Positions 668 to 64,000 of a DNA stretch of 64,000 nucleotides are shown one piece after another. The translations under genes were made by a program, and so were the position numbers. The stretch lies in contig JALSSR010000095.1 in NCBI GenBank assembly GCA_026984135.1, positions 1,840 to 65,839 of the forward strand, given 5' to 3'. Numbering within the stretch: position 1 is the first letter of the stretch; every line of letters starts with the position of its first letter. This DNA comes from Bacteroidales bacterium (GTDB lineage: Bacteria > Bacteroidota > Bacteroidia > Bacteroidales > JAADJA01). Under the pieces are notes generated by a model. That model saw only the letters and a program-made list of their open reading frames with translations, had not been told where the DNA came from and made no database searches.

Positions 668-2920
668 TTACAACTTTCTTCTTTTAACAAGAATTAAAAT
701 TACCGGAAGTAGTGTTAAGGCACCCAGGCTTGAACCTATCATACTGAAAGCAATCAGAAGTCCAAAGTACTGCAGCGGTACCATTTGAGAAAAAAGTAAT
801 ACCAGAAATCCCGCAGAAACGGAAATGGCATTAATCAATATTGCTTTTCCGCTAATCAGTATGGAGCCTTCAATAGCTCTTTTCAGATTATGATCTTCAC
901 CGAAAAGATGGTTGAAGTGTGATATTATGTGTATCGAATAATCAATGCCGATGCCGAGGGCAACACTTGCAACCAGTACTGTTCCGATATTCAGTGAGAT
1001 GCCCGTAATTCCCATAAATCCGAAAAGGATTGTGATTGCAATCACAATAGGTATTGTCGCATAAACTCCGCTTGAGAAAGATCTCAAAATTAATCCCACA
1101 ATAATTAAAACGAAAATAATTGCAAGAGTCAGGCTGCCAAATTGACTTTTAACGAGGCTCCTGTCCATTGTAACGTCAATAAAGGGCATTCCTGTTACGG
1201 CTATTTGGCAATCCTTGACGGAGTTTTCCTTGATAAATTTATTCATATAGTCGGCAAATGCTTTCTTAGACCTGTTATCGGGTGAAAGAAACGTCGAAAG
1301 AATAATACCCTCATCAAGGTCGTCAGTCACAAAGCGTTGCATATAGTCGTTTCCGTCAAGCAGAAACCAAAGTTGCTCTATCATTGCCCGGTCATCGGGA
1401 ACAGTATATCCGTTGCCCATAACTTCATTGATTTGTGCTATCAGGTCGGCAACCGATTGGGTATTCTTAATATCCTTGTTTTTCTTCATATAGGCTTCGG
1501 TCTTCATCATCATCTTCAACACTTTCGGGCTTTGCATATCCCCCTTGAAAAGAACAAAAACCGGTTTTGTGCCACCGAATTTTTCAATCATTATCTCCTC
1601 TGCCAATCGTGTTGGATTTCCCTTCTTGAAATACTCTTTAATATCCACACTCCTTTTTATCTTAAAAATACCTCCGACACTCAGCAATATTAAAACAATC
1701 CAGGTGATTAACACATATTTGGGATGTTTGAAGAGTAATGTGTGCAGAGGAGTCAAGATATTGTTGGAAAGTATTGAATGACGGGATTTTTCAATAATTT
1801 TTTCTTTGTTCTTGCTGGTTATTGAAAAAGCTACAATTACCGACGGAACAAAAAGCAGTGAAAGAAGCAGAGTGAAAAAAGTTCCGAGAGCCGTAAAAAT
1901 TCCAAAGTCTTTGATCATTGTCAGGTAAGCTCCGAAAATAAAGGATACAAAACCTATCATAGTTGTTAATGCGGCAAGAATTACAGGGATGAAAATATAA
2001 ACTAAAGTTGTGATAACGGCCTTTTTTCTGTCTCTCTCTTTTGATTGATTGATCCTGTTTAAAACGTGTATTGTGTATGCACTTCCAACGGCAAGAAGGA
2101 TTATGGGAATATTATTTGATATCATTGACATCTCGTATCCGCCCAATCCCATAATCCCAAGTGTCCAGATAATGGCAATAACGGCTGTCAGCAAAGGAAG
2201 CACTACACCCCGGGCTGATCTGAAACTTAACAGCAGGACAAATGCTATTAACAGAAAAGCGATTGGTAAAAGTTTAATCAGGTCGGAAGTCATCAGGTCG
2301 GAGATGTATGTTACCAGCATCGGAGAGCCTGTAAAGTATAGCCTTTCGGGCAGATCCATTGCCAGGACTTTCTCTCTGACAGCTCTTGCAACTGTCTGTG
2401 GATCAGCTTCGTCGCTGAGTGTAAAAATAATCAACGTTGCAGTGCCATCATCCGAAATGATAGTGCCGCGATACATATCCTTCGACATAACTCTTTTCCT
2501 CAAATCCTTTAACTCTTCGGGAGTGTCGGGTAAATCGTATTCATCAATAAGGTCACCCACTTCAATCCCGAAATCACCACCTTTGATATCAATAATGTTC
2601 GTCAGGCTTGTGACTGCGTTGATACCGGCCACTTCTTTCAGGGTGTCGGTTATTTCAACAATATTTTGTAAGACTTCGGTGTTGAATATATCATCGGCTT
2701 CAAGAATGATAATGCCCATATTGTTACCGCCAAATTGCTTTCCGATTTTTTTAAAAAGAACGGCATTAGGATCATCATCAGGCAAGGAGCTGATAATGTC
2801 GGAATTAATTTCCAGGTTTTTTATTTGGTATCCGAAAAATGTTGTTAAAAGAATCACGATGATGATTATAAACCATCTTAGCTTAATCGTAATTTCGGCA
2901 AATCGGTTCATTTTATTCAT
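668..2920 (-). CDS. RND superfamily (HAE3/MMPL-type) exporter, 12-TM with two large periplasmic loops
   Basis: 750-aa ORF with two blocks of hydrophobic helices separated by soluble domains. N-terminus (RFAEITIKLRWFIIIIVILL...) and overall layout are typical of MMPL/HAE3 transporters. Confidence 0.8.
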   Translation of the reverse strand: MNKMNRFAEITIKLRWFIIIIVILLTTFFGYQIKNLEINSDIISSLPDDDPNAVLFKKIGKQFGGNNMGIIILEADDIFNTEVLQNIVEITDTLKEVAGINAVTSLTNIIDIKGGDFGIEVGDLIDEYDLPDTPEELKDLRKRVMSKDMYRGTIISDDGTATLIIFTLSDEADPQTVARAVREKVLAMDLPERLYFTGSPMLVTYISDLMTSDLIKLLPIAFLLIAFVLLLSFRSARGVVLPLLTAVIAIIWTLGIMGLGGYEMSMISNNIPIILLAVGSAYTIHVLNRINQSKERDRKKAVITTLVYIFIPVILAALTTMIGFVSFIFGAYLTMIKDFGIFTALGTFFTLLLSLLFVPSVIVAFSITSKNKEKIIEKSRHSILSNNILTPLHTLLFKHPKYVLITWIVLILLSVGGIFKIKRSVDIKEYFKKGNPTRLAEEIMIEKFGGTKPVFVLFKGDMQSPKVLKMMMKTEAYMKKNKDIKNTQSVADLIAQINEVMGNGYTVPDDRAMIEQLWFLLDGNDYMQRFVTDDLDEGIILSTFLSPDNRSKKAFADYMNKFIKENSVKDCQIAVTGMPFIDVTMDRSLVKSQFGSLTLAIIFVLIIVGLILRSFSSGVYATIPIVIAITILFGFMGITGISLNIGTVLVASVALGIGIDYSIHIISHFNHLFGEDHNLKRAIEGSILISGKAILINAISVSAGFLVLLFSQMVPLQYFGLLIAFSMIGSSLGALTLLPVILILVKRRKL

Positions 2921-3341
2921 TTTCAGGTGTTTTTCTGTTTTTCTTTTTATTTGATTGTATCTTTTTGTTTTCCAGCCTTTTTTCTATTGAGGCTTTTGTC
3001 GGTTTTACGGGTATTCGTTTTTTGAGCGGAGTGAGAGCTTCCGTAATTATTGAGAAAAATTTTTCGATAACCTGTTGCTTGTTCTTCAGTTGTGTACGAT
3101 ATTTTTCAGATGTCAGGATCAACTCTCCTTTATTAGTGATCTTATTGCCGAGTTTCTTTAAAATAAGGGCTTTATCTTCATCCGAAAGCAGTTGTGTTTC
3201 AATGATATTAAATCGCAACTCAACCTTTGTATTCACTTTATTCACATTTTGTCCTCCCGGGCCGCCACTTCTCGATGCAGAAAAGGCCATCTCCTCCATA
3301 AAACGTTCCTTCGGATATTTTAAACGACTGCCTGAATACAT
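2913..3341 (-). CDS. arfB: alternative ribosome-rescue factor ArfB (peptidyl-tRNA hydrolase, RF-1 domain)
   Basis: 142 aa with the GGQ motif in SRSGGPGGQNVNKVNTKVELRF and a basic C-terminal tail (KKIQSNKKKNRK). Confidence 0.85.
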   Translation of the reverse strand: MYSGSRLKYPKERFMEEMAFSASRSGGPGGQNVNKVNTKVELRFNIIETQLLSDEDKALILKKLGNKITNKGELILTSEKYRTQLKNKQQVIEKFFSIITEALTPLKKRIPVKPTKASIEKRLENKKIQSNKKKNRKTPENE

Positions 3342-3464
3342 TTGCTATTATTAAGATTTCAGCAAAGGTAGATAAAATTAGTTATGATTTCCCGACCGTT
3401 ACATCTAAAATCTATGTAGAACAATCAGGGTTAGATTTGTTTTATGTAATTTGTCGTTTTTTTA

Positions 3465-3472
3465 TATTTTTG
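3465..3472 (+). promoter_or_regulatory. candidate Bacteroidota -7 box TATTTTTG (TAnnTTTG)
   Basis: Motif lies 48 nt upstream of the ATG at 3520. A second match, TAGATTTG, is at 3432-3439. Confidence 0.3.
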
Positions 3473-3519
3473 CTAATTATTCTTGTCAGAATTATTGATA
3501 CTCAATAAAATCAATTATA

Positions 3520-5634
3520 ATGATCTGTTTTGTAAAATATTTAAAAACCGTTTACCTGCTTTCAATAATGGTTTTTATGTTGAGTATGGATACTTTGGCT
3601 TCACATCCGGCGACAAGAACAGACAGTCTCAGAGTCGAATATCAAAATGCAACAACCGATACGGCAAGGATAAGAATACTCTTTAAGCTCGGATATCAAT
3701 TTCTTAACGGCCCTTCCGATTCACTTATATATTATTTTAAAAAGTCTCTTGACATTGCCGAAAAGAATCTTGAAATGTTTAATAAACGTAGTTCTGAACA
3801 GTCAAAGTTGATTGTATTGACTTACAAAAGGCAGGAGATCAGGGCTCTCATTGAAATAGGCATAGAACATTTTTATCAGGGCAACTATCCTTTGGCATTA
3901 GAAAACTATTTCAGGGCACTTTCCATATCCGAACAGATAAATGATCTTGATTTGATTTCGGAATGTTCGAGCGAGATAGGTATTGTTTTTAAAAATCAGG
4001 GTAAGTATGAAAAAGCTCTTGAATATGATAACAAAGTATTGGAATATGCCCGAATGGGTGGTGACACTTCCTGGTTTGCATCCTGCCTTGTTAATAACGG
4101 ATCCGTATATTATCATAAGGGCTACTATACTGTTGCTCTGAAAAATTATATGCAGGCACTCAAAATATTTGAATCATTAGGCCACAAAAAAAGAATTGAA
4201 GCCTGCTACCTGAATATCGGTAAAGTATATTATGAGCAGGGTGATGCCGATAAAGCTATGGGGTATTTCAGGAGGGCGCTTGATATTGCACTTGCCGAGA
4301 ATGAAAAAACAGGTGAGGCCGATTCCTACCTGAATATAGGTGCGATTTTTTCGGATAAGCATCAATACGATTCTGCCAGATACTACTTAAACAGGTCGGT
4401 GGAACTAAATCGTGAATTGGGATATAAACATGGTCTTGACGACTGTTACAGCTATATCGGGTTCACCTACAGAAAAGAGAACAAGTTGAAAGAGGCCTTA
4501 GGTTTTTATAACAAAGCACTGAAAATATCGCTTGAGGAAGAGGATAGTCCGGGAATAGCAGAATCACTCGGAAATATTGCTGAAATTTTTTATCTGCAAA
4601 AGCAGTATAATTCAGCTTTAGAAAAGGCACTGGAAGGGCTAAGCATTGCAAAGAAAACGGGTAATCTGCCTGTTTTAAAAAATATATATGCAATAATTTC
4701 ACAAATATATGAGGCTCTCGGAAATAAATCCCTGGCATTAAAGTTTTATAAACTCTACTCTTCAACAAAGGACACTATTTTTAACGAAAGTAAATACAGG
4801 GCAATCAGAGAGGTTGAAACCAAATTTGAGACTGAAAAAAAAGAGCAACAGCTCGAATTGCTTACTGAAAAAAATCATGTTCAGGAATTAATAATAACAC
4901 AGCGCAACAGAATGATAATTGCTTTTTGGGTGTTCTTTCTACTTGTCGCCGCCTCTATATATTTGTACTACAGGAATAATAAATTGAAGACGAAAAGAAA
5001 GAACATCGAACTGGAACAAAAGCTGCTTCGCTCCCAGATGAATCCCCATTTTATCTTTAATTCACTGATCGCCATTCAAAGTTTTATTTATAATAATGAT
5101 GCTGTTATGGCCGGTGATTATATTGCAAAATTTGCCGACCTGATAAGAAATATTCTTGAAAATTCCAGAGCGGAATCCATTTTACTCGAAAAAGAGGTCA
5201 AAACCTTTGAACTTTATCTCCAGCTTCAGTCGTTAAGATTTGGAAACAAATTTGAATATAAGATTGAGGTTGATAATAATATTGACAGTAAAGAGATTAA
5301 AATACCTCCAATGCTGGCACAACCGTTCATCGAAAATGCCATTGAGCATGGATTAAGATATAAGCGGGGAAAGGGATATTTGTTCATAAATTTTAAAAAG
5401 ACTGGAAATCATTTAAGGTTAGTAGTCGAGGATAACGGTATTGGCCGGAAAAAGGCCGAAGAGATAGAAAAGGATAAAAATTATAAATCAATTGGAATGT
5501 CTATTGTTAAAGAGAGGATAGAAGTGCTAAATAGTAGATATTATGAACAATTTAACCTGACCGTAAAGGACCTGTATGATAAATACGGAGAAGCGGCAGG
5601 TACAAGAATTGTTTTAGATATCCCTTATTTATAA
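3520..5634 (+). CDS. TPR-repeat sensor histidine kinase, LytS/YehU type (His_kinase + HATPase)
   Basis: 704 aa. Signal/TM region, then about 10 TPR-like repeats (YxxALxxxxxIGD... pattern), coiled coil, TM helix, then LRSQMNPHFIFNSL (PF06580-type H box) and an ATPase (IENAIEHG ... DNGIG). Confidence 0.85.
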   Translation: MICFVKYLKTVYLLSIMVFMLSMDTLASHPATRTDSLRVEYQNATTDTARIRILFKLGYQFLNGPSDSLIYYFKKSLDIAEKNLEMFNKRSSEQSKLIVLTYKRQEIRALIEIGIEHFYQGNYPLALENYFRALSISEQINDLDLISECSSEIGIVFKNQGKYEKALEYDNKVLEYARMGGDTSWFASCLVNNGSVYYHKGYYTVALKNYMQALKIFESLGHKKRIEACYLNIGKVYYEQGDADKAMGYFRRALDIALAENEKTGEADSYLNIGAIFSDKHQYDSARYYLNRSVELNRELGYKHGLDDCYSYIGFTYRKENKLKEALGFYNKALKISLEEEDSPGIAESLGNIAEIFYLQKQYNSALEKALEGLSIAKKTGNLPVLKNIYAIISQIYEALGNKSLALKFYKLYSSTKDTIFNESKYRAIREVETKFETEKKEQQLELLTEKNHVQELIITQRNRMIIAFWVFFLLVAASIYLYYRNNKLKTKRKNIELEQKLLRSQMNPHFIFNSLIAIQSFIYNNDAVMAGDYIAKFADLIRNILENSRAESILLEKEVKTFELYLQLQSLRFGNKFEYKIEVDNNIDSKEIKIPPMLAQPFIENAIEHGLRYKRGKGYLFINFKKTGNHLRLVVEDNGIGRKKAEEIEKDKNYKSIGMSIVKERIEVLNSRYYEQFNLTVKDLYDKYGEAAGTRIVLDIPYL

Positions 5635-5714: not shown

Positions 5715-6452
5715 ATGCTGACAACAGTAGTAATAGATGATGAGCCGAAAGCACGCGAGACAATTATCAACGTTCTCGGTTTAGGTCCTGATAATGTTAG
5801 TGTAATTGGAGAAGCGGGAGATGTTAAATCGGGTTTTGATGTAATTACAAAAACAAATCCTGATGTCGTTTTACTGGATATTAACCTGCCGGACGGGACA
5901 GGTTTTGACCTCCTGAAGAAATTTAACAAAATAGCGTTTAAGATTATATTTATTACAGCACATGAGGAATATGCTGTCAGGGCGTTTAAATTCAGTGCTC
6001 TCGATTATATTTTAAAACCGGTAACTGCCGGTAATCTTTTTAGCGCCATTGAAAAAGCAAAAGAATCTATACAGAAAGAGGAGACGGAGATTAAACTGTC
6101 GGCTTTTTTATCAAACCTCAATAAGATCAAAAAAATAGTTCTGAAAACCGCCGAAAGTATTCATATTGTCAATGTCAAAGATATAATTCGTTGTGAGGCG
6201 GATATCAATTACACAACTTTTCATCTTGTAAACGGCGAAAAACTACTTGTTTCCAGACCTCTGAAAGAGTATTCGGAGATGCTTGAACCTATTGGCTTTT
6301 ACCGTACTCATCAATCACATCTGGTGAACCTTGACCATATCTTAAGATATGATAAAATGGACGGCGGCCATCTCGTTTTGATTGATGAATCCATAGTGCC
6401 TGTTTCCTCCAGAAAAAAAGAAGATCTTTTCAGCCTGTTCGAAAGAATGTAG
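5715..6452 (+). CDS. LytR/AlgR-family response regulator (receiver + LytTR DNA-binding domain)
   Basis: 245 aa. VVIDDEPKARE...DVVLLDINLPDGTGFDLL receiver domain. C-terminal LytTR region (IHIVNVKDIIRCEADINYTTFHL...FYRTHQSHLVNLDHI). Confidence 0.9.
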   Translation: MLTTVVIDDEPKARETIINVLGLGPDNVSVIGEAGDVKSGFDVITKTNPDVVLLDINLPDGTGFDLLKKFNKIAFKIIFITAHEEYAVRAFKFSALDYILKPVTAGNLFSAIEKAKESIQKEETEIKLSAFLSNLNKIKKIVLKTAESIHIVNVKDIIRCEADINYTTFHLVNGEKLLVSRPLKEYSEMLEPIGFYRTHQSHLVNLDHILRYDKMDGGHLVLIDESIVPVSSRKKEDLFSLFERM

Positions 6453-6509: not shown

Positions 6510-6571
6510 TTGCCCGTTAAAAATGTGTACCCTCATATTAATTTAGTACGGTTTTAAAAATTGTTAACCCT

Positions 6572-7060
6572 GTGGATAAAATTATCATTATAAACGATAG
6601 CGGAATACAATATAAAATTGAAAAGTTTTTAAAGACGAATAAAAATCATATCAAATTCAGTTCATATATGGATGAGATTTCATTAGGCCAAAATCCCATC
6701 TTGAAAGAAATTATCAGTAAGTATGAAGATAAATGTAGAATAAAAATCCATTCAAAAGACAATATTAGTTTTTTCCGGGCTAACGAAATAGTCCGTTTTA
6801 AAGCTCACAAAAACAAGACAAATATATTCCTGACAAATGAAAAAGTAGTTGAGATAAATGAATCCATTGATAATATTGAACAACAATTAGAAAATCAACA
6901 ATTCCTGAGAATACACGAAGCACATATAATAAATGTAAATTTTATATCAAAAATTTTCGATAAAACTGAAAATAATATTGAACTAAATGATGGCACATTA
7001 CTTCCGGTAACGGAAATACGAAAAGAGTATATAATTAATTTTATTAATAACCATATTTAA
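6572..7060 (+). CDS. stand-alone LytTR-domain protein (no recognisable phospho-acceptor receiver)
   Basis: 162 aa with a GTG start in the track. C-terminal half (ISFFRANEIVRFKAHKNKTNIFL...FLRIHEAHIINVNFI) resembles a LytTR domain. Start codon is uncertain. Confidence 0.55.
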   Translation: MDKIIIINDSGIQYKIEKFLKTNKNHIKFSSYMDEISLGQNPILKEIISKYEDKCRIKIHSKDNISFFRANEIVRFKAHKNKTNIFLTNEKVVEINESIDNIEQQLENQQFLRIHEAHIINVNFISKIFDKTENNIELNDGTLLPVTEIRKEYIINFINNHI

Positions 7061-12281: not shown

Positions 12282-15200
12282 ATGAAAACGAAATTTAAAA
12301 TATTCATTTCGGTGCTTTTCATAATTACCTGGCCGGTTTTATTGCAAAGTCAAACGATAAACACCACAGCCGGGTCGCCTTCGGAGTGCCCCGGGGAAAT
12401 TGTGGTTCCTGTAACGGTGACTAATTGCAGCGGCGTTGGAGCCATTTCCCTGACCCTTCAATACGATACGGTAGTCCTTACTTATTTGAATTATGAAAAC
12501 GTTCATACGGACTTAACATCAGGATTACTTGTTGTGAACCGGATCGGTAACAAGGTAATAATAAGTTGGGCTTCGACCACAGCTGCCAATATAGGTAGCG
12601 GAACCCTGATGGACATCCGTTTTTCGGGGGTTACAGGAAGCAGCAGCCTGACGTGGGACACACAAACACCGGGTAATTGTGAATACAGCGACTTAAACGG
12701 AAATATTCTTCCTTCTTCTTATACAAACGGTACGGCAACTGTTTATCAGGCACCGGAGATAATTGATTCTCCCGGTGATATTACTGCATTTGTGGGAGAT
12801 GATATCAGCTTTAGCGTGAATGCCGTAGCCGAAAATATAAGCAGATTATGGTACAAAAGTACGGATGGTGGATCAACCTGGGTTCCAACAGGCACAACCT
12901 CAGCTACAATTCATATTAATAATGTAACATTGGATATGAACGGATTTATGTACCGTTGTGAGATTAGCGGAACCTGCGGCCCTGTTGCTACATCCGATGC
13001 GGCAACACTAACCGTAATTCAACCGCTGATAACATCATTTGATATACAGAACGTTTGTCCGGGAAATATTACAATCCCAATACTGACATCCAATTTTACG
13101 GATGTAGCTTCCCTTTCCCTGGCATTTAGCTATGATACTTCAACTTTGACCTATTCGGGTTATCAGAATGTGAATTCATTATTACCCGGAAATTTTGTTT
13201 GTAATGAAGTTGGCGGGATGGTTTATATGTCATGGTCAACGACTTCACCCGTAACTTTCGGAACGGATACAACGCTTGTCGAAATCCGGTTTACCGGAAC
13301 AGCAGGAAGCAGCAACCTGACCTGGGATTTGACAACACCGGGTAATTGTGTTTACACCTATCTGAATGCGGATGAAATTGTTTCGGTATTTGAGAATAAT
13401 TCATTTACTATTTTTCAGGTACCGCAAATCAATATCCAACCTGTTGATAAACTGGTACCGGAAAATACCGGAACTAACTTTAGCGTGACAGCAGTAGCTT
13501 CGGGAATTCATTATCAATGGCAAATCAGTACCGATGAGGGTGGATTGTGGACAGACCTGAGTAATGGAAGCCAATACAGTGGCGTTACAAATGCAACACT
13601 AAACATTTTCAATACATACCTTTCGATGAGCGGTTATTTGTATAGATGTGTTGTGAGTGGATCTTGTACTCCCGATGCCATTTCCAATCCTGCAGAGTTG
13701 ACAGTTCTGCCAAAGATAACAGCTATAGCAGGAAACGTTTCCGACTGTCCGGGATCCATAATCGTTCCTATAGATGTAACCCATTTTATAGATGTTGCAG
13801 CCTTTTCCTTAACACTAAACTTTGATCAGACTATTTTAACGTTTGATAATTACCAATCGTTAAACAGCGCCTTGTCAGGTGGAGGTTTTGCTTTGAATGC
13901 AGTTGATGGAAAAGTTTACATGACCTGGACATCTACTACTCCGGCAACGATTGGTGACGATTTGCTATTGGAGTTGATTTTTACCGGAGTTTCAGGAAGC
14001 AGTACGCTTGCCTGGAATAATACTGATGAAGGTGCCTGTGAGTTCAGCGACATTGACGGGAACATTATTTTTGATAATTATGTTAACGGTAATGTAATTG
14101 TCTATCAACCACCCGTGATAACCGGCGATCCTGTAAATCAAACGGCTCCCGAAGGAACAAGCACCACATTTACGGTTTCGGCTTCCGGAACAGGCTTGAT
14201 CTATCAGTGGCAGGAAAGCATTGATAATGGGAGTAATTGGGTAGACCTGACAAACACCGGCCCTTATTCGGGGACAAATACTCCCACATTGCAAATCAGT
14301 CTCGTTGGACAAACAATGGATGATTATCAATACAGGTGCAGGGTGTCGGGCACATGTTCGCCACCGGCTTTTTCAGGTGCTGCAATATTACATGTGACAC
14401 CTCCCATAATAATTACTTCTGCCGGAGATATTACAAATTCCTGTACGGGAAATATTACCGTTCCGATAACCGTAAGTAATTGCAATAATGTTGGGGCCAT
14501 TTCCCTGGTTCTGAATTATGATAATACAAAACTAACTTTTGAGGGATACCAGTCGCCGAACAGCGAGTTAAACGGAGGGATGCTAATTGTAAATGCGACA
14601 GCTACACAGGTTATTCTCAGTTGGGTTTCTACAGATCCGGCAGACATAGGTTTTGGAACATTGATAGAATACAATTTCAAGGCCGATGCCGGTATTTCGA
14701 CAACACTTACCTGGGATACGCAAACACCGGGTAATTGTGAATACAGCGACCCTTTTGGAAATATATTTGCCACGGCATTTAATACCGGTGATATATCCAT
14801 TAATGCCAATGCTATAATAGTAGATGCGGGAAATGACGAGTCTATTACACCCGGAGGTTCGGTTCAACTTAATGGTTCCGTAACAGGAGGCACACCACCT
14901 TATATCATTCAATGGACACCAACAACCTGGCTGTCAGACCCGAACATCTTGAATCCCATTGCTGATCCGCCTTCTACAACAACATATACTTTGACAATAA
15001 CTGATGATGTTGGATGTACAGGCTCGGACAAAATGACCGTAAATGTTTCAACAGCAGGCATTGATCTTCATTTGAAAGCTTTTCTTGAAGGACCATTCAG
15101 CGGAACAGAGATGGGTACAGCATTGAACAGTAATAATATGATTCCTTTAAATCATCCCTATTCAGGGTCGCCATGGTATTATGGAGGTTCGGAATATGTA

Positions 15201-61618: not shown

Positions 61619-62357
61619 AAAAAGAATATTAAATTAACACTTTATTCCTATCCAAGACTACGGGAATAATGCAAGAAATGTACCAATACGTTTTAATATG
61701 ATTTATTCACCGGTTATGCAGGTTTTTTTGTTTAATTTATAATCAAGCTCTTTGCATTTACCGATGAATTGGCGTTTAGGCATAGTGAATTTAATATGCA
61801 TGGAGTCCTTTTTAGGCAACGCCAGTCCTTTCCATTTGCTATCGGCTTGGTTATTGCCGCCGGACCCTTGATGCTGCATAGCCCGGGCAAATTTACGTAT
61901 CTGTTTTTTGATTGGATATTATGCCCCGCTTCACCACCTTCATTATGAATTTTCGCATATTCTTTGTAGCTTGAGATTGGATATGAATTGTTTGGGGTGT
62001 TTAGAAGTTTTTTTAAAAATAATTTGACATTTGTGTAATTACTTTTGTATATTTACAACCTTGATTCTACGGATTCGATGAACATCGTTGCCCCTATTAT
62101 TTCGGGGCTTCTGCTTTTTTATAAAATTCGGTTAAATTGCCGTACTCCCAAAGCCATACTTCATCTATTTTTTGACCTTCCAATATCCTCATGCCGATAT
62201 TTCTTTTGATAAAGTAGTGGTTGGCACCGCCTGAATTGCCAATAATCAATCTTGGCAATTGTTTTAGCCCTCTGTTGAATTTGCCGGCTTTCGACTTCGT
62301 AAAATTTGCCATCTATCAAGAGTTTCGGGCACCTGCGTTTATGCCTTGTACCTTTGG

Positions 62358-64000
62358 GTTGTGAATTGCTTTCATTTTGTATCCCCGCCTGACTGGCGCA
62401 GTCGGGCAGGTTTGACGTATTGAACACAGTCAACTGAATTTGAGGGAAAAGTAGAGAAGGGGAAAGATTATATTTTAGTTGATGATATTTTTACTACTGG
62501 ATCATCTCTTGGAGGGTTAAAAAATATATAGAATCTAATGGAGGCAACGTTGTAGCAATATTTACATTAGCTTCATCAAGAAAGAGAAGTGTTTTTTCTT
62601 TAAAAAACTTGATAAGAAAAAAATTAATTAGTAAATTTGCCGGAAGTGATTTAAATAAAACATTAAAAGATTATGGAATCGCAGAAAATATTGAGGATCT
62701 TACCGAAAGCCAAGGAGAATACATTCTCAAATTCGCCTCGCTTGACAAGTTCAGAAATGCAATCTTTAAAAGCAGATATGAAGAAGGCCTACGAGTATTT
62801 GATGAAAAGAAGAAAGAGTCAAAAGTAAGTAGTGATTCAGATTATTTAAAAAATAAAACATCTAAAGAAAAAGCCACAGAAGAAAATTATCAAAAAATAT
62901 TTGATGATATTTCAAAAATTGCTCCTAATGCTTTAACAGTTAAAGTTGTAGATTCTATTGATGATTTACCGGATTATGTTAAAACACATCCTTTATTTAA
63001 GTCAGATATATTTGCTGCGGTAAATAATGGAGAAACTCTTTTTGTATTAAAATCATCAATAGAAAGCAGAGAAGATGTAGTGAAGATTTGGTTGCACGAA
63101 AACGGAGTTCATCAAGGTTTAAAAAATCTTATTACTTCAGAACCCGAAAGAATAAGATTTTTAGAAAAAGTATATGATGACTTTATTGAAATAGAAAAAA
63201 AGATAATCAGTTTCAACAAGTAGTTGATAAAGTGATAAATGAATATAATGGAGCGACTAAAGATACTTTAGGAAATGAATTTTTAGCATATTTGAGCGGA
63301 AAAGTAATGGATGAAAAGAATTTGACTCCATCAGAAAAAACATTATGGAATACTTTATAAGTAAAAGTTGTGAATTGCTTTCATTTTGTATCCCCGCCTG
63401 ACTGACGCAGTCGGGCAGGTTTGACGTATTGAACACAGTTAAAAAGTATGGTATTGACACAACGAATTTGTTGTGAATTGCTTTCATTTTGTATCCCCGC
63501 CTGACTGACACAGTCGGGCAGGTTTGACGTATTGAACACAGTGATAAAGCAAAAGTAAAAGATGTGATGTTCGTTGTGAATTGCTTTCATTTTGTATCCC
63601 CGCCTGACTGACACAGTCGGGCAGGTTTGACGTATTGAACACAGTAGGATCAAGAACTTAAAGGTTAAGACATCGTTGTGAATTGCTTTCATTTTGTATC
63701 CCCGCCTGACTGACGCAGTCGGGCAGATTTGACGTATTGAACACAGTAAGGATCAAGAACTTAAAGGTTAAGACGTCGTTGTGAATTGCTTTCATTTTGT
63801 ATCCCCGCCTGACTGACGCAGTCGGGCAGGTTTGACGTATTGAACACAGTTGCAATAGATAATGCATATACATCACGGTAGTTGTGAATTGCTTTCATTT
63901 TGTATCTTTGACGTATTGAACACAGTAATAGAAAAATGAACAAAAACAGATTTTCAGTTGTGAATTGCTTTCATTTTGTATCTTTGACGTATTGAACACA
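62358..64000 (+). CRISPR. CRISPR array (Bacteroidota type II-C-like repeat), 8 repeats in window, continues past the right edge; no cas genes in window
   Basis: 73-nt repeats: 62358-62430, 63367-63439, 63470-63542, 63573-63645, 63675-63747, 63778-63850. 46-nt repeats: 63881-63926 and 63957-64000 (cut by the window). 46-nt consensus GTTGTGAATTGCTTTCATTTTGTATCTTTGACGTATTGAACACAGT. Spacers are 29-30 nt except for a 936-nt interval. Strand is assigned from the GTTGTG... convention only. Confidence 0.9.
62433..63360 (+). pseudogene. 5'-truncated, twice-frameshifted gene fragment occupying a spacer position (PRTase-like motif; resembles phage/conjugative-element polyvalent-protein segments)
   Basis: Segment 1: EFEGKVEKGKDYILVDDIFTTGSSLGGLKN*. 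Shift in an A6 run. Segment 2: KKYIESNGGNVVAIFTLASS...WLHENGVHQGLKNL...EKKIISFNK*. Shift in an A-run. Segment 3: DNQFQQVVDKVINEYNGATKDTLGNEFLAYLSGKVMDEKNLTPSEKTLWNTL*. The reading frame opens at the repeat edge, and the natural stop is 6 nt before the next repeat. Confidence 0.6.

Follow-up and report, generated by a model that had tools for sequence, protein, structure and literature searches.

The 64-kb stretch of Bacteroidales DNA analysed here, hereafter the window, ends in a CRISPR array, the studied part of which (62358-64000, + strand) contains two forms of repeat, i.e., six of 73 nt (R0-R5) and two of 46 nt (R6 and R7). The long form is the 46-nt repeat with exactly 27 nt inserted between repeat nt 26 and 27, and the inserted 27-mer folds into a hairpin that recurs in unrelated sequence contexts of other bacteria. 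It is probable that this 27-mer is a dispersed mobile hairpin which has colonised CRISPR repeats. Its entry into the repeats after spacer acquisition, in the old part of the array, is the history that we put forward with reserve.

The 27-nt hairpin inside and outside CRISPR repeats

All eight repeats of the window share the 26-nt head GTTGTGAATTGCTTTCATTTTGTATC, for which shuffled sequences give an expectation of 0 copies, and the arms of the long and short repeats are 100% identical. Comparison of the 46- and 73-nt forms places the insert at GTATC/27 nt/TTTGAC, with an unambiguous boundary and a target duplication of 0 bases. The target-site duplication that is a hallmark of miniature inverted-repeat transposable elements is not present, and the short and long repeats are a textbook empty-site and filled-site pair without target duplication. 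Every long repeat has its full length, and copies truncated in the manner of a ruler were not seen. The repeats and spacers are located as follows.

62358..62430, + strand: R0, 73-nt repeat, hairpin at 62384-62410, loop GCG
63367..63439, + strand: R1, 73-nt repeat, hairpin at 63393-63419, loop ACG
63470..63542, + strand: R2, 73-nt repeat, hairpin at 63496-63522, loop ACA
63573..63645, + strand: R3, 73-nt repeat, hairpin at 63599-63625, loop ACA
63675..63747, + strand: R4, 73-nt repeat, hairpin at 63701-63727, last base G>A
63778..63850, + strand: R5, 73-nt repeat, hairpin at 63804-63830, loop ACG
63881..63926, + strand: R6, canonical 46-nt repeat, intact TATCTTTG (TAnnTTTG -7 box) at 63903-63910
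63957..64000, + strand: R7, canonical 46-nt repeat, cut by the window end
63440-69, 63543-72, 63646-74, 63748-77, 63851-80 and 63927-56, + strand: six unique spacers of 29-30 nt

The 27-mer, CCCGCCTGACTGACGCAGTCGGGCAGG, occurs six times at no more than one mismatch, each time within one of the 73-nt repeats, and was not found elsewhere in the 64-kb window even at three mismatches (0 expected). Folding returned the structure ((.(((((((((...))))))))).)) at -16.4 kcal/mol (z = -3.6), a stability equalled by 0 of 200 shuffled sequences; it comprises a stem of 12 positions, including one C/A mismatch and one G-U pair, and a 3-nt loop. The copies vary in the loop, which reads GCG in R0 and ACA in both R2 and R3, and at the last base, which is changed from G to A in R4. 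An earlier interpretation of the window made from its letters alone (the sequence-only reading) had described six 73-nt repeats carrying one and the same hairpin insertion, this stem and exactly these differences between copies, all of which were confirmed by repeat comparison and by folding.

The same reading gave the spacers between long repeats a length of 29-30 nt, which holds for the spacers listed above but not for the interval between R0 and R1, which measures 936 nt. It also described spacers 3 (63646-63674) and 4 (63748-63777) as near-identical, and they do indeed represent one protospacer, with 5' ends offset by 1 nt on the side distal to the protospacer-adjacent motif (PAM) and a single A/G difference three nt from the PAM-proximal 3' end. 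The pair looks like a re-acquisition from a seed-escape phage variant; a search of viral contigs with the core of the two spacers returned 0 matches.

A scan of GTDB, with one genome per species, for the exact stem CCGCCTGACTGNNNCAGTCGGGCAG returned at least 86 sites in at least 38 assemblies, with up to at least 11 loci per assembly; the matches listed comprise 80 loci and the counts are lower bounds. Among the matches listed, the hosts are Bacteroidales, Chitinophagaceae, Draconibacterium, Parafilimonas, Cyclobacteriaceae, Ignavibacteriaceae and Chlorobiota, together with single Elusimicrobia and Anaerolinea bins, and the hairpin is also carried by isolates, i.e., Pinibacter, Danxiaibacter and strain 26-R-25 (Chitinophagaceae). 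Its contexts are unrelated to one another, being intergenic, nested in other hairpins, or within heptamer tandem repeats, larger repeated units or units resembling transfer RNA (tRNA). In a flank logo of 37 distinct contexts, position -1 is occupied by C in 36 cases and position +1 by G in 35, and, since this C/G closing pair is conserved across contexts, the unit corresponds to the 27 nt inserted in the CRISPR repeats, with the formula C-CCGCCTGACTG-NNN-CAGTCGGGCAG-G. A weak A-T-C upstream of the hairpin in the logo is also found in the repeat (GTATC before the insert).

While 67 of the 86 listed sites lie outside open frames of at least 150 codons, 19 lie inside such frames. The 27 nt correspond to nine codons and are stop-free in five of the six reading frames, and an in-frame copy adds nine residues, which are ARLTDAVGQ-like in one orientation and PARLxQSGG-like in the other. 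For example, in a GH29 fucosidase (L066, 190-1635) the hairpin coincides with an exact nine-residue gap, TRLTDSVGQ, in the alignment with PDB 4ZRX, and in an acyl-CoA dehydrogenase (L020, 5713-7551) with a nine-residue gap relative to 3OWA; two more in-frame hairpins are located at L008:923-2080 and L078:1940-3202. A search of the 2.9 million viral contigs of IMG/VR returned 0 matches to the hairpin. Because it is dispersed, occurs in-frame in genes and is absent from viral contigs, the 27-mer would appear to be a mobile hairpin comparable to repetitive extragenic palindromic (REP) sequences and Rickettsia palindromic elements (RPEs). The sequence-only reading had envisaged, as a finding contrary to its own model, a common dispersed element that inserted independently many times: the 27-mer is such a common dispersed element, some copies of which lie in genes, and this makes up one half of that finding, the other half being independent insertion into each repeat.

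Rfam searches of the hairpin loci and the array returned no family for the hairpin, the only matches being CRISPR-DR49 (short repeats) and the unrelated Flavo-1 RNA. A full-text literature search retrieved no paper containing the hairpin sequence, and a search of the literature on palindromic elements in Bacteroidetes retrieved nothing relevant. In view of the Rfam and full-text results, the 27-nt element is apparently undescribed. The hairpin was also considered as part of a larger RNA, an adapter or a contaminant, and these identities were rejected on account of its diverse flanks, its loop variation and its presence in isolate genomes.

Of the contexts mentioned above, two deserve description. 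The hairpin is often situated within direct heptamer tandem repeats, which are ATCCAGT-like in Draconibacterium (L011, L021, L039, L052, L056, L071, L076 and L080) and TTTTCAA-like in Chitinophagaceae (L010, L041, L044, L057, L060, L072, L082 and L084); the heptamers differ between genomes and the layout is shared. Locus L033 (1-790) contains tandem units of 144 nt which resemble the 3' half of a tRNA, each with a copy of the 27-nt hairpin and, in addition, another small hairpin (GTACC-GTCA-GGTAC), and which adjoin a small GIY-YIG-like open reading frame (ORF). ARAGORN found no tRNA in this locus, and its candidacy as a second CRISPR array was rejected in favour of a tandem of tRNA-like units.

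Type II-C relatives of the array and their RAYT-like gene

A metagenome scan for the repeat, in which 0-30 nt were allowed at the insertion point, yielded 12 loci with an identical 46-nt repeat, and further loci with the same repeat were obtained via protein look-ups. In nine of these loci (L094, L095, L097 and L099-L104) the array, read as GTTGTG..., is followed by a conserved tail, then on the opposite strand by cas2, cas1, a gene for a protein of 197-217 aa and cas9, and finally by a tracrRNA (trans-activating CRISPR RNA); csn2 and cas4 are absent from this arrangement. The Cas9 proteins of these relatives measure 1366-1825 aa and match TIGR01865 (E = 1e-152), and the anti-repeat of L094 (6383-6404) forms a duplex with repeat nt 1-25 that contains one bulge, and is succeeded by AAGG and a terminator hairpin. 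The 46-nt repeat also matches the 47-nt Rfam family CRISPR-DR49 at 30.3 bits, below the cutoff of 41 bits. Judged by the repeat that it shares with these loci, the array is of type II-C, the cas genes and tracrRNA in evidence being those of the relatives; no cas genes were found in the window between 50 and 64 kb, and no anti-repeat was found in the window. The resemblance to Bacteroidota type II-C loci which the sequence-only reading pointed out is upheld by relatives carrying cas9, cas1, cas2 and a tracrRNA.

In type II-C arrays new spacers are added at the last, cas-proximal repeat, and each repeat carries its own promoter, with transcription directed toward the variable cas-proximal end (PMC12080349; PMC10309648). 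The flank on the cas2 side is conserved among the related loci (ACACCTGNGTTYAAT...TCACAAC...AAAAAACTGTGTT plus a hairpin); the cas-distal flanks are mutually unrelated, and cas-distal repeats are degenerate or interrupted. Given this polarity, the conserved cas2-side flank and the degenerate cas-distal repeats, the window would hold the oldest, i.e., trailer, end of its array. The sequence-only reading had the long repeats contiguous at one end of the array; this is not the acquiring end, since acquisition occurs at the opposite, cas-proximal end.

Several peculiarities of the related loci were observed at either end of their arrays and in one tracrRNA region. The 3' end of the last repeat forms, together with the leader, an inverted repeat, TATTGAACACAG-TACAC-CTGTGTTCAATA, in L085 (1856-1884), L086, L094, L095, L097 and L103, and a second, partial inverted copy (AAAAAACTGTGTT) follows it ahead of the terminator hairpin. 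At the other end, the trailer-most repeat is interrupted between nt 15 and 16 by a different insert of 32-50 nt in L091 (~60-140), L092 (~6140-6219), L103 (~6540-6620, - strand) and L099 (2215-2300, - strand). These inserts partly share ...GCTYCGCTNAGT and contain small hairpins; they break the tracrRNA-pairing half of the repeat and keep TATCTTTG, and such an insert may be a way to avoid an 'extraneous' CRISPR RNA (crRNA). In L097 (3360-3600) the tracrRNA region is rearranged, with a sense repeat fragment inside an L094-type tracrRNA scaffold, and a second anti-repeat, TTGAAAGACAATTCACAAC-AAGGCTATAAGCC, lies closer to cas9.

Two further features were identified at the trailer end of the array in the window.

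62097..62357, - strand: decayed, 5'-truncated ORF at the cas-distal (trailer) end of the array, 71-aa remnant
62431..63366, + strand: AT-rich foreign gene fragment between R0 and R1, 936 nt, 28.5% GC

The ORF remnant has no Pfam or NCBIfam match. A longer and less deleted version of it adjoins the same repeat in another sample (L003:2318-2668); relative to that copy, the remnant has internal deletions between short direct repeats (CCTTT), and the junction of array and flank is shared. This trailer flank shows no conservation across the related arrays and is therefore not a leader. The 936-nt fragment, the GC content of which compares with ~40% for the window, looks like the 3' portion of a gene that has undergone two frameshifts, contains a phosphoribosyltransferase-like motif (DYILVDDIFTTGSS) and ends 6 nt past a stop codon. 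It gave one weak phosphoribosyltransferase match and one weak phage match, with nothing stronger, and a search for homologues among 5.8 billion proteins returned only the fragment itself.

The gene of 197-217 codons located between cas9 and cas1 (L094:1545-2138, - strand; L097:8001-8594; L099:94-684; L101:4001-4621; L103:4001-4654) resembles those of REP-associated tyrosine transposases (RAYTs). Its product matches NCBIfam REP_Tyr_transpos (NF047646) with E = 1.5e-12 and 47.6 bits, below the curated cutoff of 80 bits, and Pfam Y1_Tnp below threshold, and its only PDB match by profile is E. coli TnpA-REP (4ER8, E = 1e-3). Across 26 homologues, no variation is seen at the second histidine of the HUH (histidine-hydrophobic residue-histidine) motif (NHFHL) or at the catalytic tyrosine (YIxxNP), and hardly any at the first histidine. 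The family comprises over 3,300 members, and in five of eight gene contexts examined, down to 64% identity, the gene stands in a cas9-RAYT-cas1-cas2 operon. The three stand-alone homologues that were checked each have palindromes of their own on both sides, which is the classic RAYT/REP layout.

L098, 7934-8002 and 8772-8830: palindromes flanking a stand-alone RAYT-like gene
L105, ~2850-3000 and ~3640-3670: palindromes flanking a stand-alone RAYT-like gene
L107, flanks of 3001-3585: palindromes flanking a stand-alone RAYT-like gene

These palindromes, e.g., TTGATACGATGACT-TAA-AGTCATCGTATCAA, all differ from the 27-mer. In two of the three pairs the stem measures 14-15 bp, the loop 3 nt, and the apex (TGACT...AGTC) is like that of the 27-mer; the third pair differs. 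The enzyme most likely to mobilise the hairpin would be a RAYT-type HUH/Y1 single-strand DNA transposase, a gene of this type being located between cas9 and cas1 in II-C loci with the repeat of the window, an assignment that is plausible but tentative. Two results count against it: no RAYT gene flanked by the 27-mer was found, so that the link to RAYT is circumstantial, and no RAYT gene was found within the 80 listed hairpin loci of eight kb each by tblastn and a scan for the HUH...YxxxNP motif. Nothing relevant on RAYT or TnpA genes in II-C loci was found in the literature searched, and the RAYT-like HUH gene conserved inside cas9-cas1-cas2 operons is a candidate CRISPR-linked gene that deserves follow-up. 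Of note, a 5'-truncated RAYT-like gene (L093:12286-12852, - strand) adjoins the trailer end of an array of the same repeat (repeat at 12781), with no cas9 nearby.

Order and history of the long repeats

Long repeats are present in three independent assemblies, i.e., the window contig, an ENA assembly contig (k141; L001) and a JGI contig (L085). L001 runs 108 nt beyond the window, through the short R7 and a 30-nt spacer into another 73-nt repeat, so that its order is six long, two short and one long, and at k = 141 single k-mers cover a spacer, a repeat and the next spacer. L085 consists of four long repeats and 19 short repeats, followed by a leader-like tail; after this leader, at the place expected for cas2, lies an IS3-like orfA start (METMRKTRRKFT; 2050-2088), and the cas genes of the L085 strain may be displaced or lost. 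The spacer with which L085 begins is found again three units further on, pointing to a cycle in the assembly graph or to rearrangements of units. The long repeats do not, therefore, constitute one contiguous block as the sequence-only reading had it.

It is hardly credible that the long repeats are an artefact of assembly or sequencing, a concern which that reading had itself raised. CRISPR arrays are admittedly hard to assemble from metagenomes, and the recurring spacer of L085 is a case in point, but the same long form appears in the ENA and JGI assemblies as well as in the window, each k-mer of 141 nt reaches across a repeat and the spacers on both of its sides, point variants distinguish the copies, and the same 27-mer is present in isolate genomes.

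Of 133 repeats in related contigs, 119 are short, 11 bear the 27-nt insert and three bear a different one, which agrees with the earlier view that the 46-nt form is ancestral and the insert derived. The reverse relationship, in which the 73-nt repeat would be the normal functional form with a matching tracrRNA and the 46-nt copies would be deletions, is very improbable. The oldest repeats in the window are indeed long, but short repeats outnumber long ones by 119 to 11 across at least 12 arrays of related contigs, the anti-repeat in the relatives' tracrRNA stops at nt 25 and holds no partner for the hairpin, it is the short form that gives the sub-threshold match to the 47-nt Rfam family, and the hairpin, which lacks flanking microhomology, would need to have been lost precisely on many occasions.

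Joining L001 and L085, as a shared CAA (3 nt) and the same sample series suggest, would place all ten long repeats within the 12 oldest of 31 positions (P = 1.5e-6), a distribution in keeping with colonisation that depends on age or comes in a burst. In the older long block variants are found in four of six copies, and in the younger block in none of five. Long repeats are grouped in two or more blocks in the array's old part; provided that L085 continues the array of the window or is a close variant of it, all of the newest repeats are of the short form. No spacers are shared among 14 related arrays, and the insertion is therefore not datable against acquisition.

The history that we favour, with reserve, is one in which the hairpin would have colonised the repeats after spacer acquisition, in an old and dispensable cas-distal part of the array. 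Every repeat would offer the same target, and the element could have spread by repeated site-specific insertion and/or by conversion from neighbour to neighbour, either in a burst or by accumulation with age, with no need for excision. The occupied repeats sit beside other junk, i.e., the 936-nt foreign fragment and the decayed ORF. The preference is founded on the old-end bias of the long repeats and on the mobility of the element elsewhere. Several points are at odds with simple independent insertion. At least ten independent insertions within ~1.2 kb need an exceptionally hot target, and independent insertions are not expected to leave clean blocks; the long repeats of L085 form a single run (P = 0.002 under random placement), and L085 may represent an array or strain different from that of the window. 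The ACA loop common to R2 and R3 suggests copying between neighbours as opposed to simple independent insertion, and the distribution of variants over the older and younger blocks points to different ages rather than to one burst.

The sequence-only reading had instead proposed a single insertion into a repeat that was then copied, i.e., that the hairpin entered the leader-proximal repeat and that Cas1-Cas2 duplicated the 73-nt repeat at later acquisitions, in which case blocks of long and short repeats would reflect which form the leader-proximal repeat had at successive times. The clean runs still fit this proposal: long repeats occur in runs with unique spacers of 29-30 nt, including the single run of L085 (P = 0.002), they are of full length throughout with no ruler-type truncation, the older block has more point variants than the younger, and spacers 3 and 4, both of which lie between long repeats, look like genuine successive acquisitions. 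It is weakened, however, by the position of the long repeats at the old end, with the newest 19 repeats of L085 being short, and by the interleaving of the two forms, since an order of long, short, long and short requires at least two insertions and at least two base-perfect excisions in the leader-proximal repeat and none in ~30 internal ones. The restriction of the ACA loop to R2 and R3 would furthermore demand a back-mutation or a parallel change, and the 27-mer is seen to insert on its own elsewhere. Copying by Cas1-Cas2 is consequently regarded as unlikely, although a serious contender; if right, the array would be direct in vivo evidence on the choice of the second integration site by II-C Cas1-Cas2. 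The expanded repeats alone are not evidence for propagation of an expanded repeat by Cas1-Cas2.

A doubtful but consequential hybrid is that the RAYT-like HUH enzyme encoded between cas9 and cas1 inserts or seamlessly excises the hairpin at the leader-proximal repeat on single-stranded DNA, e.g., on a gapped integration intermediate. If this were true, the long and short blocks would be a record of on/off switching of repeat promoters; Cas1-Cas2 would have duplicated 73-nt repeats faithfully, with a second-site choice guided by sequence and not by a ruler; and there would be a CRISPR-associated HUH transposase with an array-shaping role.

Import of the long block by recombination with a mobile element or with the array of another strain, as a mini-array or repeat mimic, had also been raised by the sequence-only reading and is improbable. 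Compatible with it are the AT-rich foreign fragment of 936 nt placed exactly between two long repeats, the decayed ORF that forms the trailer flank, and the duplicated spacer of L085, which suggests rearrangements of units. Against these stand the absence of the hairpin from the IMG/VR contigs, which leaves a mini-array or mimic origin of the hairpin without support, the failure of the 936-nt fragment to match anything but itself, the lack of shared spacers among related arrays and the complete identity of the arms of long and short repeats.

Likely consequences of the insert and likeness to known systems

The insertion point lies one base past the segment that pairs with the L094 tracrRNA (repeat nt 1-25). 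In co-folding with this tracrRNA, the 46- and 73-nt repeats form the same duplex over nt 1-25, and the hairpin folds separately right after it. As the insert lies beyond nt 1-25, the crRNA handle of the upstream spacer should be unaffected, and the earlier suggestion that position 26/27 is beyond the crRNA-relevant part of the repeat is supported by the pairing of the relatives' tracrRNA.

At repeat nt 23-30, TATCTTTG perfectly matches the -7 promoter box of Bacteroidetes, TAnnTTTG, and is present in 119 of 119 short repeats and in 0 of 11 long ones. The insert splits this box (TATC/TTTG), leaves only cAggTTTG and shifts any upstream TTG 27 nt away. With its -7 box split, the long repeat has, judging by this motif, probably lost its promoter for the downstream spacer or had it weakened; a scan for sigma-70 promoters was uninformative for Bacteroidota. 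Spacers 0-5 would then be largely silent, there being no upstream repeat promoter at the trailer end, a condition that would be tolerable for old spacers.

CRISPR repeats are usually treated as nearly immutable. The hairpin-bearing repeats, of which there are at least 11, represent a natural experiment on the tolerance of a II-C repeat for 27 extra structured bases, and the site of the hairpin separates the tracrRNA-pairing half of the repeat from its promoter half. The 27-mer would rank among the smallest mobile DNA units known and deserves follow-up. The most fitting description is that of a mobile hairpin of 27 nt invading II-C repeats at a permissive position, and the known kinds with which it can be compared are REP/RPE-like elements and mobile DNA in arrays.

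The REP sequences of E. coli and Pseudomonas, with their doublets (so-called REPINs) and RAYTs, are likewise short, GC-rich, dispersed, imperfect palindromes. They are mostly extragenic and present in several to many copies per genome, as the 27-mer may be too, judging by its up to at least 11 loci per assembly and by the listed sites outside long open frames. There is no target duplication in either case, a RAYT-like family with the HUH and tyrosine motifs exists in the same lineage as the 27-mer, and its stand-alone genes are flanked by palindromes, two of the three having, as in the 27-mer, a 3-nt loop, here on a stem of 14-15 bp. The 27-mer differs in being only 27 nt long and in occurring as singlets and not as REPIN doublets. 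It has no GTAG or CGTC tag at its foot, where the flank logo shows only the closing C/G and a weak A-T-C, and its stem is identical across several phyla and is also found in-frame in genes and inside CRISPR repeats.

RPEs are similar to the 27-mer in that they are palindromic selfish DNA which inserts in-frame in conserved genes, and in RNA genes, without destroying them. They measure 100-150 bp, however, and are confined to Rickettsiales, whereas the 27-mer amounts to nine codons and belongs to a group of Bacteroidota, Ignavibacteriota and Chlorobiota. The peel-and-paste insertion sequences (ISs) of the IS200/IS605 type share with it the lack of target duplication, the possibility of seamless excision, a weak preference for a 5' motif (A-T-C) and, on the tentative RAYT assignment, recognition of a hairpin by a Y1 HUH enzyme. 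Unlike them, the 27-mer carries no transposase and has a single hairpin in place of left and right subterminal ones, so that only non-autonomous movement would be possible.

Mobile DNA within II-C arrays has a precedent in an IS256 inside the array of Flavobacterium psychrophilum, where repeat promoters keep the split parts of the array transcribed (PMC10309648). Together with degenerate trailer repeats, such ISs resemble the present case in that mobile DNA and decay accumulate in arrays; the difference is that the insert described here measures 27 nt and lies inside the repeat itself, at one fixed position, in at least 11 repeats. Finally, the II-C arrays of Neisseria, Campylobacter and Flavobacterium contain, like those of the present group, a promoter motif and pair with the tracrRNA through the 5' half of the repeat; they are read toward the cas genes and acquire spacers at the last repeat, which would hold for the present group as well. 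The loci described here are set apart by an extra RAYT-like gene between cas9 and cas1 and by the interruption of some of their repeats by a hairpin.

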